DNA from: Thermodesulfovibrionia bacterium
Lineage (GTDB): Bacteria; Nitrospirota; Thermodesulfovibrionia; Thermodesulfovibrionales; SM23-35
Assembly (NCBI GenBank): GCA_041488675.1
Contig: JBGPPR010000001.1
Span: 1 to 31,444 of the forward strand
Direction of reading: 5' to 3'
DNA: 31,444 nucleotides
The notes beneath the pieces are model-generated. The model was not told the DNA's origin. It did no database searches and was given only the letters and a program-made list of their open reading frames with translations. The position numbers were made by a program, and so were the translations under genes. Positions 19,599 to 31,093 of this stretch are shown piece after piece. How positions within the stretch are numbered: the first letter of the stretch is position 1; every line of letters begins with the position of its first letter.

Positions 19599-19611
19599 TA
19601 GTAATTAAATT

Positions 19612-22055
<2,444 letters not shown>

Positions 22056-26268: not shown

Positions 26269-27935
26269 AAAAGTTTTCTATCGCAGTTTTCTTGTCTTTG
26301 CTTCTCATTCCTTTTTTTTCAGCAGGGAAAGATTTCTATGAAGAACAGCTTGATAGAGGGATCAGAAATTCAGAGTCTTACTCATATTTTCTCATAGAGA
26401 AGTCAAGAGCAAATCCTTCCCAAAAGGAGGAAATTCTGAAAGAAGCATTGAGATGCTCTCCAGACTTGCCGGCAGTATATTTTGAGTTATCAAAGGCCAA
26501 TTTTTCCGCCTTTGGAGGAAGGATGTACAAAGCCTATGATTATATGCTCGGAGGAATAGAGGCATATAAGAGGAACTTTTGGTGGACCTTTACGCTTGCG
26601 GGTTCCCTTTTCTTGGGTTTGATCATTTCCTTTGTCTTCTCCATGTTAATTATTATTATCATAAGGCTTATGAGAGATTTGCCTCTTCTTACTCACGATA
26701 TCATGGAGCGGAAGAACAGGATGCTCCTCCTTCTAATTGTAATCATTTCAGCTTTTGCAGGGCCTCTCCTCTTAATGGGAAGTATCCTCATCGTACTCGG
26801 ACTTTATTTGAAAAAAGTTGACAGATCTGTTGTTTATCTGTACCTTCTTTTTCTCTTCCTTTCCCCATGGCTCTTAAAAGCCTCTTCGATCGCTTTTAGT
26901 GTCCCTTCTTCGAGCGTCCTTAAGGCAGTTATTGAAGTCAATGAGTCAAGAGATAGCAGATATGCCCTTTCTGTTCTGAATAATTCCGAAGATGAAGCAG
27001 CCCTTTCCTCGTATGCCCTTGCCTTGAAACGTGAAGGGTATTACGACGAGGCGATAGAGATATACAATAAACTTATTGCGGGAAATCCCGACCCTGCATT
27101 TTACAACAATCTTGCAAATTGCTATGTTGCAAAAGATGATTTGGAAAAGGCCATAAAACTCTATCAACAATCGATACAGATAAAACCTCTTGTTTCTGCT
27201 TACTACAATATGAGCCAGGTTTTGAGAAGGACACTCGATTTGGTGAAAGGTGAGGAGTATTTTCTCTATGCTCAAAGGATGGATCCTGATGCAATTACAG
27301 GGTTCCAGGCAGTCTTCAGCCAGAACCCGAACAGACTTGTTGTTGATGAAGTCCTTCCAATCTCAGCTCTCTGGGAATACTCTCGCGAGAAAGCAGCCGG
27401 AGTCTCTGCATTTGGCTTGTCAATGCTACCGCCGAGACGGTTGCCTGTTCTGGCTGTTTTCATTGGTGCCCTGTTTTATGTATTAAACAAGCGCATGAGA
27501 GCCAGGGCATACAGGTGCAAGAAATGCGGTACAATCATCTGTAACAAATGTGTGAGAAGAGTACTGTGGGGAAATATGTGTTTGCAGTGTTATAAATCCC
27601 TGATTGAACTCCATGAACTCGATGCAAGAGAGAGAATCACAAGGCTTAAGACTGTTTATGAATATCAGATGAGACGTAGAAGTATACTAAAGGTCCTGTC
27701 TTTCCTGCTGCCGGGATCTGCCTACATATATGCAGGATTCGTATTAAAAGGTTTTTTCATTCTCTGGTTGTTCTTATTCCTCCTGACAGCCTTCATCATC
27801 AGTTCTACCTTTGTGGTTGGAATGCCTTATTTTCCGCACCTCTGGCTGAATTGGGGTGCTCCTTTCCTTCTGGTAATGGTACTTCTCGTATCTAATATCA
27901 TTACACAACTGAGGCTTGCCAAGGGATGGCTTTGA
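26265..27935 (+). CDS. Multi-pass membrane protein with TPR repeats and a 6-Cys zinc-finger-like motif
   Basis: Signal-like N-terminus, several TM stretches, TPR-like repeats (ALKREGYYDEAIEIY, FYNNLANCY...AIKLYQQSI), CxxC-x4-CxxC-x9-CxxC at 27516-27590; GTG start overlapping the plsY stop. Confidence 0.8.
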   Translation: MKKFSIAVFLSLLLIPFFSAGKDFYEEQLDRGIRNSESYSYFLIEKSRANPSQKEEILKEALRCSPDLPAVYFELSKANFSAFGGRMYKAYDYMLGGIEAYKRNFWWTFTLAGSLFLGLIISFVFSMLIIIIIRLMRDLPLLTHDIMERKNRMLLLLIVIISAFAGPLLLMGSILIVLGLYLKKVDRSVVYLYLLFLFLSPWLLKASSIAFSVPSSSVLKAVIEVNESRDSRYALSVLNNSEDEAALSSYALALKREGYYDEAIEIYNKLIAGNPDPAFYNNLANCYVAKDDLEKAIKLYQQSIQIKPLVSAYYNMSQVLRRTLDLVKGEEYFLYAQRMDPDAITGFQAVFSQNPNRLVVDEVLPISALWEYSREKAAGVSAFGLSMLPPRRLPVLAVFIGALFYVLNKRMRARAYRCKKCGTIICNKCVRRVLWGNMCLQCYKSLIELHELDARERITRLKTVYEYQMRRRSILKVLSFLLPGSAYIYAGFVLKGFFILWLFLFLLTAFIISSTFVVGMPYFPHLWLNWGAPFLLVMVLLVSNIITQLRLAKGWL

Positions 27936-28996
27936 GAGGTTCTTTAGAAGTCTTTGGCCTTGCCGATATACTCCAACTGATTCATTTCCAGCGGAAGAGC
28001 GGGGTTCTTGCCTTGGAGGGAGAGAAAGATGAGGTAAAGGTCTTTTTCATGGAGGGCAACATTGTAAGAGCTACATCACAAAGGAGGCAGGAAGACGCCA
28101 GGCTGGGGAAGGTGCTTCTGAAAAGAGGTGCCTTGAAGGATGAAGACCTGCAAATTGCTCTCGAGGAACAACGCAGAACGGGAAAGGCGCTCGGCGGTAT
28201 CCTCCTGAAAAAGGGGGTTGTTGATAAAGAACACATAAAGGAAGTTTTGACCGGCCAGATTACTGAAACAGTTCTCCAATTGTTTAGCTGGGAGAAGGGG
28301 ACCTATGAGTTTACACCTCAGGCAATAACTCTTGATTCCGCCGGTGATAAGGAAGTTCCCATAACTCTTGATACTCAACACCTGCTTATGGAGGGCCTGA
28401 GGATACTTGATGAATGGTCTGTCCTTGAAGGAAGATTAGCGCTCGATGCAGTTTTAATAATTACTACAGGGGCTGTTGCTGATTTGAGCAAAGAGGAGCA
28501 AGAAATCCTGCCGTTGGTAGACGGAGAAAATGATCTCAGCACAATAATCGATATCAGCGGAAAAGACGGGTTCACAGTAGCCAAAATCCTCTTTTCCCTC
28601 ATGGGCAAAGGAATTGTGGAAGCCAAAGAGGTTGCTCCTGTTATTGAAGAGCCATTAGAAGAAGTAAGAATACCAAGGATTTCTGATTCAGTATTGTATA
28701 AAGTTGCTGTGAAGGGAGCGATAGTAATTTCCGTCATGCTCTCACTTTCTCTCGCTTTTTTAAATGGGGATGATACAATTAAGAAATTCAGGGCGTCAAA
28801 AGCAGTTGAGAGCTTGAGGTTGAAGATAGAAGCGTATAAGTTTGAGCACGGTGATTACCCGGAGACATTGGATGCTGTATCCAGACAATTAGATCCCTGG
28901 AAAAGACCTTACATTTACAAACACGGTATGCATACATTTGTTGTCATGAGTACTGGGGCGGACGGAAAAGAAGGAACTGCAGACGATGTTTTCTGA
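27926..28996 (+). CDS. DUF4388 (PatA_N-like) protein with tandem MshEN-like motifs, one TM helix and a C-terminal GspG-like pseudopilin head
   Basis: [18 protein letters not shown]...KSGVL (DUF4388); RLG..LL..G....L..AL..Q x2 (aa 59-111); TM aa ~261-279; IEAY..EHGDYP...DPWKRPYIY...[13 protein letters not shown]. Confidence 0.8.
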
Positions 28997-29007
28997 AGGG
29001 TGAAGAG

Positions 29008-29796
29008 ATGACGAGAAGGAAAGCTGTGGTTCTCCTCAGCGGGGGAATTGATTCGTCAACGACCCTTGCAGTTGCAAAATCCGAGGGGTATGAATTATAC
29101 GCCCTCAGTTTTGATTATAACCAACGGCACAAGAGGGAGATTGAGTCCGCACAGTTGGTTGCCGAAGCCCTTGGAGTTGGACGGCATCTTATTATTCATT
29201 TTGATCTCCGGAGCATCGGGGGTTCGGCTCTCACTTCAGATAGGAAAGTACCCAAACGAGTCACAATTAACGAGCCACAAGTAACGTGTGAAAAAAAGGA
29301 CTCGTCACTAATTCCGGTGACCTATGTCCCGGCCCGCAATACAATTTTTCTCTCCTTTGCCCTGGGTTGGGCAGAGGTTTTAGAGGCTGAGGATATCTTT
29401 ATCGGTGTAAATTCCGTCGACTATAGCGGTTATCCCGACTGCAGACCTGAATACCTTTGGGCATTTGAGGATATGGCAAACCTTGCAACAAAAGCTTCTG
29501 TTGAAGGCAGGTTAAGGTTTGTGATAAGAGCGCCTCTCGTATCAATGGAAAAATCTGAGATAATCAAGAAGGGAGTGGAACTCGGGCTTGATTACTCTTT
29601 AACCTGGAGCTGCTATGACCCGCAGAAAGGCGGTGATGCGTTATCCGTAATGCGTAATGGGATGAGAAAAAACACACATTACACTTCACGCATTACTCAT
29701 CACAATTATGTCCCCTGTGGTTTATGTGAGAGCTGCGTAATCCGCACAGAAGGTTTCAGAAAGGCGGGGTTAAAGGATCCGCTCATGGAGCCCTAA
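29008..29796 (+). CDS. queC: 7-cyano-7-deazaguanine synthase, with two repeat-derived in-frame insertions
   Basis: [36 protein letters not shown]...CGLCESC..R. Confidence 0.97.
29255..29309 (+). repeat. Degenerate heptamer repeat with an inverted half, in frame in queC (insertion 1)
   Basis: AACGAGT CACAATT AACGAGC CACAAGT AACGTGT (29255-89); GACTCGT 29299-305 is the reverse complement of ACGAGTC 29256-62. Confidence 0.7.
29632..29704 (+). repeat. 4x7 + 4x7 heptamer hairpin, in frame in queC (insertion 2)
   Basis: GGTGATG CGTTATC CGTAATG CGTAATG, 17-nt loop, CATTACA CTTCACG CATTACT CATCACA. Confidence 0.85.
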
Positions 29797-29807
29797 AAGA
29801 CTTAGAC

Positions 29808-30215
29808 ATGACGTTTCCCATCAGACCGTGCATCAGACTCAGAGGGCATCATCTCATGTGTCTCCATTTCTTTAGTGGGGAAGGTTACGCTCTCGAATTT
29901 ATTTCAAACCTGAGGAAGATTTTGGAAAGAGCCGGATCTGGAGAAGAGATTGCAATTTGTACCGGTGCGGATGATGTTTGTGGCAAATGCCCCCATCTGA
30001 AAGGGGAAAGATGCCTTGTTGATAAAGATTCCGATGATGAGATAAGAGAGATGGACAGGAGAGCATTGGAATTGCTAAGATTGAGCGCTGACGGAAAAGT
30101 ACAGTGGTCGATGATAAAGGATAAAATTCCAGAGATAATCGAGGAATGGGCAAATACATATTGTAAGGCCTGTGGCTGGAGAAAGGCGTGCGGGCAACAT
30201 TTACAGATTTTATAG
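29808..30215 (+). CDS. DUF1284 family Cys/His-rich protein
   Basis: RLRGHHLMCLHFFSGEGY, DDVCGKCPH, C-terminal CKACGW. Confidence 0.8.
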   Translation: MTFPIRPCIRLRGHHLMCLHFFSGEGYALEFISNLRKILERAGSGEEIAICTGADDVCGKCPHLKGERCLVDKDSDDEIREMDRRALELLRLSADGKVQWSMIKDKIPEIIEEWANTYCKACGWRKACGQHLQIL

Positions 30216-30249
30216 GTGTCAAGAACTATGAATAAAGATCGTTCATGGA

Positions 30250-30837
30250 ATGAAACTACTGAAGGTAGACTTTGATGAAATTCAGAAGGCGATGGAAGAT
30301 GTCGTCAGGGATTCCTTTGATTACTTCCTTGACCTTCATACCGGAGAAGTTATAGCTCTATCAGAGGATATCCTGGACAAGGTTGGGGTGAGACTCTATG
30401 AGGGTGATTTTGATGCGATCGGAGACGATATTGAATACATTGAATTTTCTGAAGAGCCAACATTGCCTTCTTGGATGGAAGATGAGGTAGAACTCGTACT
30501 GAATGTGATGCTCGACAAAGATGGAAGATATGTCCGCATCCCGGAGAGACATTCGCCTGAGGCACATCAGGTTATGCTTGAATTTTTGGAAACCGTTGAA
30601 GAACCTGTTCTTAGAGGAGAGCTTGCTCATGCGCTCGATGGTAAAGGAGCTTTCAGAAGATTTAAAGACGTCCTTAGTTATCATCCAAAGGAGAGGAAAA
30701 AATGGCATGGCCATAATGCACGGGCCATGAAGAAAGTTATTACAGAATGGTTGAGGTCTTTAGAGGTAGAACCTGTGCAAATTAACCGGGAGAGAAAGGA
30801 AAGGGGGCAAGACGATGTCGGAGAAGTTGAGCTATGA
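30250..30837 (+). CDS. UPF0158 family protein
   Basis: YFLDLHTGEV, YVRIP, MLEFLE, ALDGKGAFRRFKDVL, ERKKW. Confidence 0.82.
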   Translation: MKLLKVDFDEIQKAMEDVVRDSFDYFLDLHTGEVIALSEDILDKVGVRLYEGDFDAIGDDIEYIEFSEEPTLPSWMEDEVELVLNVMLDKDGRYVRIPERHSPEAHQVMLEFLETVEEPVLRGELAHALDGKGAFRRFKDVLSYHPKERKKWHGHNARAMKKVITEWLRSLEVEPVQINRERKERGQDDVGEVEL

Positions 30838-31093
30838 AGAATTTATAAGGAGAGCAATCGTGAGTTTAAGAAAGGAGGGATACAAGGGAATTCATTCTGT
30901 ATATTCCGGATTTAATAGTGCCTTCAAGAAATATTTTGATGGTGAAAACCCTGTCGAGGTAACGAACAGATTAGCCCAGGAAGGAAGGATTGTCGTAAGA
31001 CCGGTTAAAGGTGGGGTGATGCTCTATCTCCCTGAGGAGGTGACTTCTCCAAGAGATTCGGCTGACGAGGCACTAAGGAAAATGGGATTGTAG
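30815..31093 (+). CDS. Small hypothetical protein (92 aa)
   Basis: ATG after AAGGGGG, overlaps the UPF0158 gene by 23 nt; protein-like sequence (KGIHSVYSGFN, RPVKGGVMLYLP). Confidence 0.75.
   Translation: MSEKLSYEEFIRRAIVSLRKEGYKGIHSVYSGFNSAFKKYFDGENPVEVTNRLAQEGRIVVRPVKGGVMLYLPEEVTSPRDSADEALRKMGL

Follow-up and report, generated by a model that had tools for sequence, protein, structure and literature searches.

The queC gene of a Thermodesulfovibrionia bacterium contains, within the codons for its zinc-binding motif, a hairpin assembled from 7-nt repeats. Our analysis points to this segment being a tolerated, translated selfish hairpin repeat in a permissive loop of QueC, that is, a copy of a dispersed element, with turnover of the cassette at the site; we give this reading a probability of roughly 80%. 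The stretch that we analyzed, hereafter the window, comprises positions 1 to 31,444 of contig JBGPPR010000001.1 (forward strand, 31,444 nt; GenBank assembly GCA_041488675.1). Its host genome (G000) is a fragmented 1.42-Mb metagenome-assembled genome (MAG) of 300 contigs, 85% complete, and the names given to homologues in the sources place the host in Nitrospirota, Thermodesulfovibrionales. The related sequences compared throughout are non-independent.

In the 73-nt hairpin at 29632-29704, two arms of four 7-nt units each, the second inverted relative to the first, enclose a 17-nt loop (Table 1). The right-arm units read CATTACA, CTTCACG, CATTACT, and CATCACA, and the unit pairings are 6/7, 4/7, 5/7, and 6/7 from the outermost to the innermost. 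A preliminary description, made from the letters of this DNA, had placed a 4x7/4x7 hairpin here inside the QueC zinc motif; the letters, the open reading frame (ORF), and the pairing values all held, with only the order of the pairings slightly different. An inverted-repeat search returned arms of 27 nt that were 78% complementary. The RNA fold had a z score of -1.48 in a thermodynamic test, which was not significant; as a thermodynamic hairpin, the insert is unremarkable, whereas as a repeat it is beyond chance. We also observed that the DPQ codons (GACCCGCAG) and the PCG codons (CCCTGTGG), at window positions 29617-29625 and 29714-29721, flank the cassette and form a 6-nt inverted repeat, CCRCAG / CTGTGG. 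The repeat hairpin may be stacked on a small pre-existing flank stem, or the arrangement may be a coincidence.

Table 1. Features of the queC gene and its repeat-derived inserts (window positions)
Feature	Position	Strand	Remarks
queC (7-cyano-7-deazaguanine synthase)	29008..29796	+	262 aa, intact; PF06508
Second, independent heptamer-derived insert in queC	29255..29309	+	AGTnACn-type units; period-14 tandem repeat (TRF); AF2 pLDDT <50 at residues 72-108
Cys202, first predicted zinc ligand	29611..29613	+	aligned to 3bl5 C186; invariant
Dispersed CGTAATG-type hairpin element copy (type A cassette), the hypervariable cassette of the locus	29627..29710	+	nhmmer envelope
Left arm	29632..29659	+	GGTGATG CGTTATC CGTAATG CGTAATG; consensus CGTAATG
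In-frame codon TTA (Leu)	29641..29643	+	consensus unit would give TAA
Loop	29660..29676	+	17 nt, A-rich; homologous to loops of other element copies (alignment)
Right arm	29677..29704	+	four inverted heptamers; consensus CATTACG; stop-free in all frames; encodes H-x-SRITHH peptide
Cys237-x2-Cys240-x2-Cys243, other predicted zinc ligands	29716..29736	+	aligned to 3bl5 C195/C198/C201; invariant

The protein around the insert is well conserved. It matched PF06508 with an E-value of 6.1e-69, residues 5-253 lying on profile positions 1-209/210, and an alignment of 117 homologues had 55 columns without variation, among them those of the PP-loop SGGxDS and of the four cysteines; the ATP-binding motif itself, L10-S11-G12-G13-x-D15-S16, was invariant in the same 117. 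An ENA homologue (P0002) is 98% identical. All four Cys of the predicted zinc site are present, but the first spacing is x34 instead of x8: alignment to B. subtilis QueC (3bl5; C186-x8-C195-x2-C198-x2-C201) gave C202-x34-C237-x2-C240-x2-C243 for the window, confirming the widening to C-x34-CxxCxxC that had been noted from the letters. An AlphaFold (AF2) model built from the homologue alignment had 131 residues with a predicted local distance difference test score (pLDDT) above 90, forming the core, and its top PDB match was QueC 3bl5 (E 1.7e-15; TM score 0.82 normalized by target). The score fell below 50 only at residues 72-108 and 211-231, exactly the two repeat-derived inserts. The 211-231 segment is missing from the 3bl5 structure in the alignment, and the model places the insert at the protein surface, outside the QueC core. 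The site is a permissive, disordered one, closed at its ends by the predicted zinc ligands.

A sign of translation comes from the stop codons that such a repeat should bring with it. As 7 shares no factor with 3, TAA comes up once per 21 nt in every frame of a perfect (CGTAATG)n array, so that one arm of such a hairpin cannot be coding unless every third unit is altered. In the queC hairpin, unit 2 alone carries its stop triplet in frame, and it is also the one unit with a pyrimidine at unit position 4; among the six orthologues that share the window's allele (type A, below), three have T there and three have C. It had been pointed out before that a consensus unit 2 would put TAA in frame at 29641-43, where the actual codon is TTA, and the sequence bears this out. 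The partner of unit 2 has kept a C, whose match would be a G. In the rest of the genome, unit position 4 of the same repeat family is G in 25 cases, A in 18, T in 4, and C in 1 (pyrimidine in 5/48, ∼10%). Since the pyrimidine is a standing minor variant, a stop-safe unit may have existed on arrival, and mutation after insertion is indistinguishable from survival of a stop-free copy or register.

The same rule held in five further genes. Including queC, the set comprises the C8 activase (two critical units), a C32 class I aminoacyl-tRNA synthetase, a C267 DNA polymerase III subunit, flgI, and an M23 peptidase; across the six genes, in-frame stop triplets were changed in 8/8 cases and out-of-frame ones were kept in 18/19. 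More widely, the consensus unit was stop-free on the sense strand in 27/33 genic arrays versus 45/84 intergenic strand readings. The M23 peptidase array (C55:5839-5878, minus strand) reads, in the sense direction, TTCGCTC, TTAGCTC, TTAGCTC, TTTGCTC, TTAGCTC; exactly units 1 and 4 of the 5, whose TAG would be in frame, are altered.

We compared the site in 27 orthologous loci, namely 19 relatives' genomes, 7 metagenome contigs, and the window. The frame from WSCYDPQ to CxxCxxC was open in 27/27, and each locus had an insert there. In six sequences, type A had a constant length of 132 nt, counted from the W up to the last Cys. The build of type B differs, with a small CCTGC..GCAGG stem, (AGTTCAA)n, an A-rich loop, and (CCGAACT)n, and its lengths of 138, 117, and 96 nt are steps of 21 nt (differences of 3 and 6 heptamers). 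The exact complement of its left-arm unit, TTGAACT, would hold TGA, and none of the right-arm units seen keeps TTGAACT. Other relatives had (AAGTCAG)4, a 14-mer array, or C-rich/G-rich hairpins at the site, and one (G012) was a hybrid in which a foreign hairpin replaces the type B left arm. Among the 117 homologues, the shortest spacing between Cys1 and Cys2 was x7, the canonical form, and the longest x54; x34 and x36 were the modes, and x29 formed a smaller peak. Some relatives of the same family (G015, G023) and most other families of the order matched the query as two adjacent pieces without residues ∼206-233, which indicates, as read from the alignments, a short canonical loop. Where relatives have loops as long as that of the window, these are heptamer or hairpin repeats, not the equally long non-repeat loops that the preliminary description had named as speaking against its reading.

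The insert was also found outside the window's own assembly. A 5.5-kb contig assembled independently in another study covers 29450-29850 and shows 3 differences in those 401 nt. The organism itself is present in the samples of runs X1-X9. Relatives' metagenome contigs diverge from the window at 29624-26 and rejoin it at 29711-14, with 74 or 94 other letters of other heptamer types between. Judged from these alignments, the insert did not arise as a single isolated event. Most of the family has a hypervariable cassette in this loop, and the insert is one of its alleles.

Alleles appear to be exchanged as well as diverse. Types A and B were intermixed on a core-protein tree from which both inserts had been left out, and P0005 (type A) and P0011 (type B), both from JGI samples, were sisters on it with support 100/99. 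Their contigs are ∼99% identical over 1.4 kb, and the insert at the 29255-29309-type site (site 1) is identical in the two; the ∼93-nt cassette, bounded by GACCCACA and TTCCCTGTGG, is wholly different. The small number of mismatches is concentrated no more than ∼100 nt from the cassette. The simplest reading of these contigs would be that homologous recombination replaced a short tract by way of the conserved flanks, because both alleles have older homologues elsewhere. We rejected programmed cassette switching from a silent copy as a candidate: a type B profile found no full type B copy elsewhere in the genome, the hits being a partial relative in a C111 gene (E 4e-5) and weak matches only. 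At site 1, a 7-aa (21-nt) indel distinguishes relatives. Some relatives' inserts at this site have VTHHTSRIT-like peptides, a translated CATCACG-type arm.

Next to the queC site stands the question of what the repeat is a copy of. We took a census of heptamer arrays in the MAG, using thresholds of our own choosing. Four-unit arrays of period 7 numbered 64, against 1, 0, 24, 5, 0, and 0 for periods 5, 6, 8, 9, 10, and 11, and shuffling gave 0. Arrays of period 8 were likewise over-represented (24 versus 0-5 for periods 5, 6, 9, 10, and 11). An inverted partner lay no more than 60 nt away in 33/75 three-unit arrays by a calibrated local score, and in 0 with shuffled flanks; stricter scoring (mismatch penalty -2) gave only 8. 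Inverted arrays spaced 60-2500 nt apart, which might have marked larger composite elements carrying a gene, were absent from this MAG. The queC cassette aligned with copies on C146, C79, and C177 (z 9-20) along both arms and the loop, and did so in a single orientation; a profile of the element (nhmmer) found loci outside its training set on C8, C46 (two), C79, C12, and C122 at E-values of 1e-6 to 1e-3. Because arms and loop align with other contigs and the profile finds further loci, the queC insert is, on alignment evidence, a copy of a discrete dispersed element of ∼75-85 nt, more than a local microsatellite.

The CGTAATG-type element has ∼10 loci in the MAG, and only two fall in long ORFs: queC and a BcrAD/DUF2229 activase gene on C8. 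A wider class shares the architecture and differs in its units (CGTAATG, AAGAGCA, AGTGACG, AGTTAAA, GAAATGA). After merging, 20/61 heptamer elements lay well inside ORFs of at least 600 nt, compared with 60% of random 70-nt windows; genes are avoided yet are far from spared. Pfam domains were present in 19/20 of the hosting ORFs, and among the host genes are those of two class I aminoacyl-tRNA synthetases, a DNA polymerase III subunit, FlgI, FlgA, MoeA, BioW, HemC, and dihydroorotase. Across 60 genomes of the order, a four-unit nGTnAnn pattern was patchy, ranging from up to ∼300 matches per genome to almost none; families f2, f7, f12, and f13 were rich in it, and f4, f5, and f11 had almost none.

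Individual copies showed several further features. The C8 activase (BcrAD_BadFG/DUF2229; C8:2599-7122, minus strand) is a 1508-aa frame with four heptamer arrays or hairpins (C8:3790, 4769, 4849, 5124), and it holds a CGTAATG-type copy like that of queC, which encodes PITDHASRITS. An intergenic CGTAATG-type copy (C177:2061-2138, minus strand) is directly followed by six T and resembles an intrinsic terminator; some intergenic copies may act as terminators. Within the window, a (GAGCAGA)x4 array occupies 20114-20145 in the open frame 19609-20397, which the preliminary description called kdsB; its unit is stop-free on both strands and belongs to the genome's most abundant unit class (AAGAGCA-like). 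The arms also have a polarity: in G000, the purine-rich arm was 5′ and the pyrimidine-rich arm 3′ in 19/25 heptamer hairpins, with 6 neutral and 0 reversed (the hairpins include C2:11039-11113, C31:871-982, and C267:1957-2049). This is not an orientation artifact, because the property reads the same on either strand. A few relatives' QueC alleles (G012, G019, G024) have a C-rich arm first.

Selection on the insert bears on whether it might be functional, either as an RNA or DNA hairpin that regulates queC through pausing, mRNA stability, or attenuation, or as a loop recruited for partner binding or zinc-site tuning. A function would fit the presence of an insert of ∼20-36 residues at this site across many genera and the constant length of type A, and also the arm pairing in the six type A orthologues, which was found in register in 68.5% of cells versus 17-43% for slid controls. 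Against it, only one hairpin pair had changed on both sides, a count reached by 265/500 shuffles, so that structural selection is unsupported, and 16/28 pairs depart only by mismatches; the fold energy, as given above, is unexceptional. There was no Rfam match at the gathering level, and a permissive threshold over 28900-30300 gave sub-threshold chance matches only. Relatives hold unrelated fillings, or the short canonical loop, at the same site, and the insert segment has low pLDDT. Its substitutions are even over codon positions: variable sites at positions 1:2:3 in the six type A sequences were 13:8:9 in the insert and 0:1:8 in the flanks, and pairwise dN/dS (nonsynonymous to synonymous rates) in the type A insert was mostly 0.4-1. 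We consider a function highly improbable. Frame and length are kept at the queC insert, and, as far as these comparisons of sequences reach, neither the peptide sequence nor the hairpin is kept. The preliminary description had proposed that selection keeps the frame open and that the ∼26 extra residues are translated and tolerated. All of the comparative tests support this proposal: the 27/27 open loci, length steps of 21/42 nt, the conserved Cys and protein, the third-position bias of 8/9 in the flanks versus 13:8:9 in the insert, and the stop rule in five further genes.

Other explanations concern where the insert came from and whether it reaches the protein at all. It might have arisen in place as a local microsatellite or quasi-palindrome, by polymerase slippage of the 7-nt unit and template switching between the arms. 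Heptamer simple sequence repeats are over-represented in bacteria, with slippage proposed, according to the mention of Mrazek 2007 in PMC4692102; the copy number at this site does shift by whole units (138, 117, 96 nt), relatives' units form a graded series (AGTTCAA, AGTTAAA, AGTTAAG, AGTGAAA), and no target-site duplication was seen. What makes an origin in place unlikely is that the 17-nt loop, besides the arm units, is common to the queC cassette and copies on three other contigs in an orientation-dependent manner, and that the unrelated A and B occupy the same site in near-identical backgrounds, which gradual local drift would not give. Slippage probably explains length changes after arrival. 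If RNA excision or a bypass of the T4 gene 60 type removed the insert ahead of the finished protein, mature QueC would be left with a canonical loop. A hairpin in a coding region is a feature of that bypass, and no RNA run holding the gene is listed that would exclude it directly. A skipped segment needs neither to be free of stops nor to have a length divisible by 3; yet the frame is open at all 27 loci, indels are steps of 21 nt, and the altered units are exactly those with an in-frame stop. There is neither a stop behind a take-off codon nor an intron-like match in Rfam, and we know of no bacterial way to rejoin an mRNA cut at a hairpin, which we count against this explanation. We regard it as very improbable indeed, in line with the preliminary description, which had ranked RNA-level removal as the less likely alternative. 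That queC is a decaying pseudogene, or the insert an assembly artifact, could be suspected from a MAG of this fragmentation and completeness in which QueF and QueD were not found. Both are effectively refuted by an intact frame with invariant PP-loop and four Cys, by flank substitutions at third codon positions in 8/9 cases, by the insert's presence in several independent samples and assemblies, and by Tgt and QueA, which were found in the MAG; the preliminary description had listed both among the outcomes that would overturn it.

The reading that we favor, a translated selfish repeat in a permissive loop, can be set out as follows. The 73-nt hairpin is a copy of a dispersed heptamer hairpin element, in which an A-rich loop of 15-17 nt separates four 7-nt units from four inverted ones; this element and its kin are scattered through the genomes of this Thermodesulfovibrionales lineage, with most copies intergenic. 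Genic copies would survive only in permissive loops, with a frame-keeping length and all in-frame stop units altered; in queC, the permissive place would be the loop between zinc ligand 1 and ligands 2-4, its ends pinned by the metal site. The element would be transcribed and translated with the gene, giving a ∼26-residue disordered loop on an otherwise normal, functional QueC, and the hairpin, without a demonstrable role inside the gene, would be decaying there. The zinc loop would be a long-lived landing and turnover site, with types A, B, and others in different relatives and exchange between close strains. Copies would spread by some copy-and-insert process, with whole-unit slippage afterward. 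Of these parts, translation of the queC segment is very likely, judging from the comparative evidence; it is likely that the insert is neutral or nearly so; and a copy-and-insert process is plausible.

Several points weigh against this reading. A search for RNA runs holding the queC stretch listed none, and translation is inferred. The loss of 8/8 in-frame stops is partly built in, the elements having been picked inside open frames; the stop rule is informative through its contrast to the 18/19 and through the real domains that flank the arrays on either side. No target-site duplication or common flank was found in the five element copies inspected, and no enzyme was linked to the heptamer elements, so that the term "mobile" rests only on dispersed copies sharing arms and loop. 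The A/B contigs are short-read metagenome assemblies and could in principle reflect a chimera with a double strain switch. QueF and PTPS-type QueD were not found with the profiles used in a MAG that is 85% complete, which does not show their absence; because they were not found, a complete queuosine pathway in the MAG is not shown.

A more specific possibility, which we hold only tentatively and think doubtful, is a structure-targeted class of mobile element with an unknown enzyme, whose insertion prefers existing hairpins or cruciforms. The flanks CCRCAG ... CTGTGG would then make the queC site a self-perpetuating hotspot, in which one unrelated cassette displaces another even among strains that are ∼99% identical, and the purine-rich-5′ polarity (19/25, never reverse) would be a footprint of the mechanism.

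Several known systems resemble the queC element in part. Rickettsia palindromic elements (RPEs), in the summary of Ogata et al. 2000/2002 given in PMC10969869, are dispersed palindromes, found in frame within numerous housekeeping genes and judged compatible with both the fold and the function of the proteins. They resemble the present case in several respects: a dispersed palindromic family lies in frame in unrelated genes and is read through as an extra peptide; a peptide recurs in unrelated proteins, here H-x-SRIT(H/S) in QueC, the C8 activase, and site 1 of relatives' QueC; and the hosts are otherwise conserved genes, here queC and 19 further ORFs with Pfam domains. However, RPEs are ∼100-150 bp long with their own conserved sequence and occur in Rickettsia, whereas the queC element has 73-85 nt, tandem 7-nt units, and a Nitrospirota host; the queC class is one architecture with many unit sequences, and RPEs show neither unit slippage by 21 nt at a time nor a turnover of alleles at a single site. 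By analogy, the queC element would work like an RPE without being a member, set apart by length, build, and host rather than by a search against RPE sequences, to which homology is not expected. Coding palindromes are also described in the account of Nematomorpha mitochondrial genes in PMC6649704, where they are long, perfect, and up to 284 bp. As that account has it, these are likewise inverted repeats in protein-coding genes with both arms translated; they belong to animal mitochondria and are neither built of heptamers nor a dispersed bacterial family. Bypass elements, introns, and inteins differ from the queC insert, which is under frame and stop constraint and has no Rfam intron match.

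Heptamer arrays themselves are known from other bacteria. They include the cyanobacterial short tandemly repeated repetitive (STRR) arrays as well as the GGGAATC arrays of Xanthomonas and the GGGGA(C/T)T arrays of Nostoc, the latter two being intergenic and sometimes inverted (Rehm et al. 2015, PMC4692102), and the 4 x GGACCGG elements of Geobacter metallireducens, which are reported both inside genes and in the spaces separating them (Aklujkar et al. 2009, PMC2700814). Shared with our case are 7-nt arrays of ∼4 units, many copies per genome, inverted pairs (Xanthomonas, Nostoc), and a genic location (Geobacter). The published cases are mostly intergenic, with putative regulatory or G-quadruplex roles, and their unit sequences differ; in-frame translation, periodic loss of in-frame stops, and allelic loop cassettes are not described there. 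STRR units are CCCCAGT, TTGGTCA, and CAACAGT, whereas the units here are CGTAATG, AGTGACG, AAGAGCA, AGTTAAA, and others, in a Nitrospirota host rather than a cyanobacterial one. Full-text literature searches returned no description of heptamer repeats for Thermodesulfovibrio or Nitrospirae. [quoted passage not shown] The queC element has no GTAG/CGTC tag, and none of the copies adjoins a Y1 gene; the single Y1_Tnp fragment in the MAG (C161) has upstream hairpins that are not heptameric. Y1_Tnp (IS200/RAYT-type) genes, many of them long forms of 220-330 aa, were present in 21/22 nGTnAnn-rich genomes versus 15/28 genomes with almost none of the pattern, a loose and non-independent association that is weak as a link. 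With regard to MITEs, the arms are inverted repeats, but neither a target duplication nor a common flank was seen in the five copies, and no cognate insertion sequence was identified.

The neighborhood of queC is stable. Gene order was kept in all close relatives (window 27926-31093; loci L027, L030, L032, L055), running DUF4388/GspG-like, queC, DUF1284, UPF0158, and a 92-aa ORF. The DUF1284 protein of the locus is Cys-rich and 131-139 aa long, and its close pairing with queC might point to a queuosine-related role of DUF1284.

Overall, this case contributes a position between zinc ligands, a genome-wide periodic stop rule, and a swap of A and B cassettes in near-identical backgrounds. The metal-binding motif of an enzyme can absorb a 26-residue repeat-derived stretch between its ligands, and a whole bacterial lineage appears, from its genomes, to live with dozens of translated repeats in core genes, among them those of cofactor enzymes, of a DNA polymerase III subunit, and of aminoacyl-tRNA synthetases. 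That precisely the units with an in-frame stop are lost, in a periodic pattern, is a clean signature of translation readable from sequence, which can be used to annotate inserts in uncultured genomes. Structure-targeted insertion, if true, would be an undescribed mode of DNA mobility, steadily remodeling the loops of proteins in Nitrospirota and phyla like it. With its allelic cassettes, a single site forms a natural system for following the arrival, turnover, and recombination of selfish repeats in genes, and a source of raw material for protein loops.

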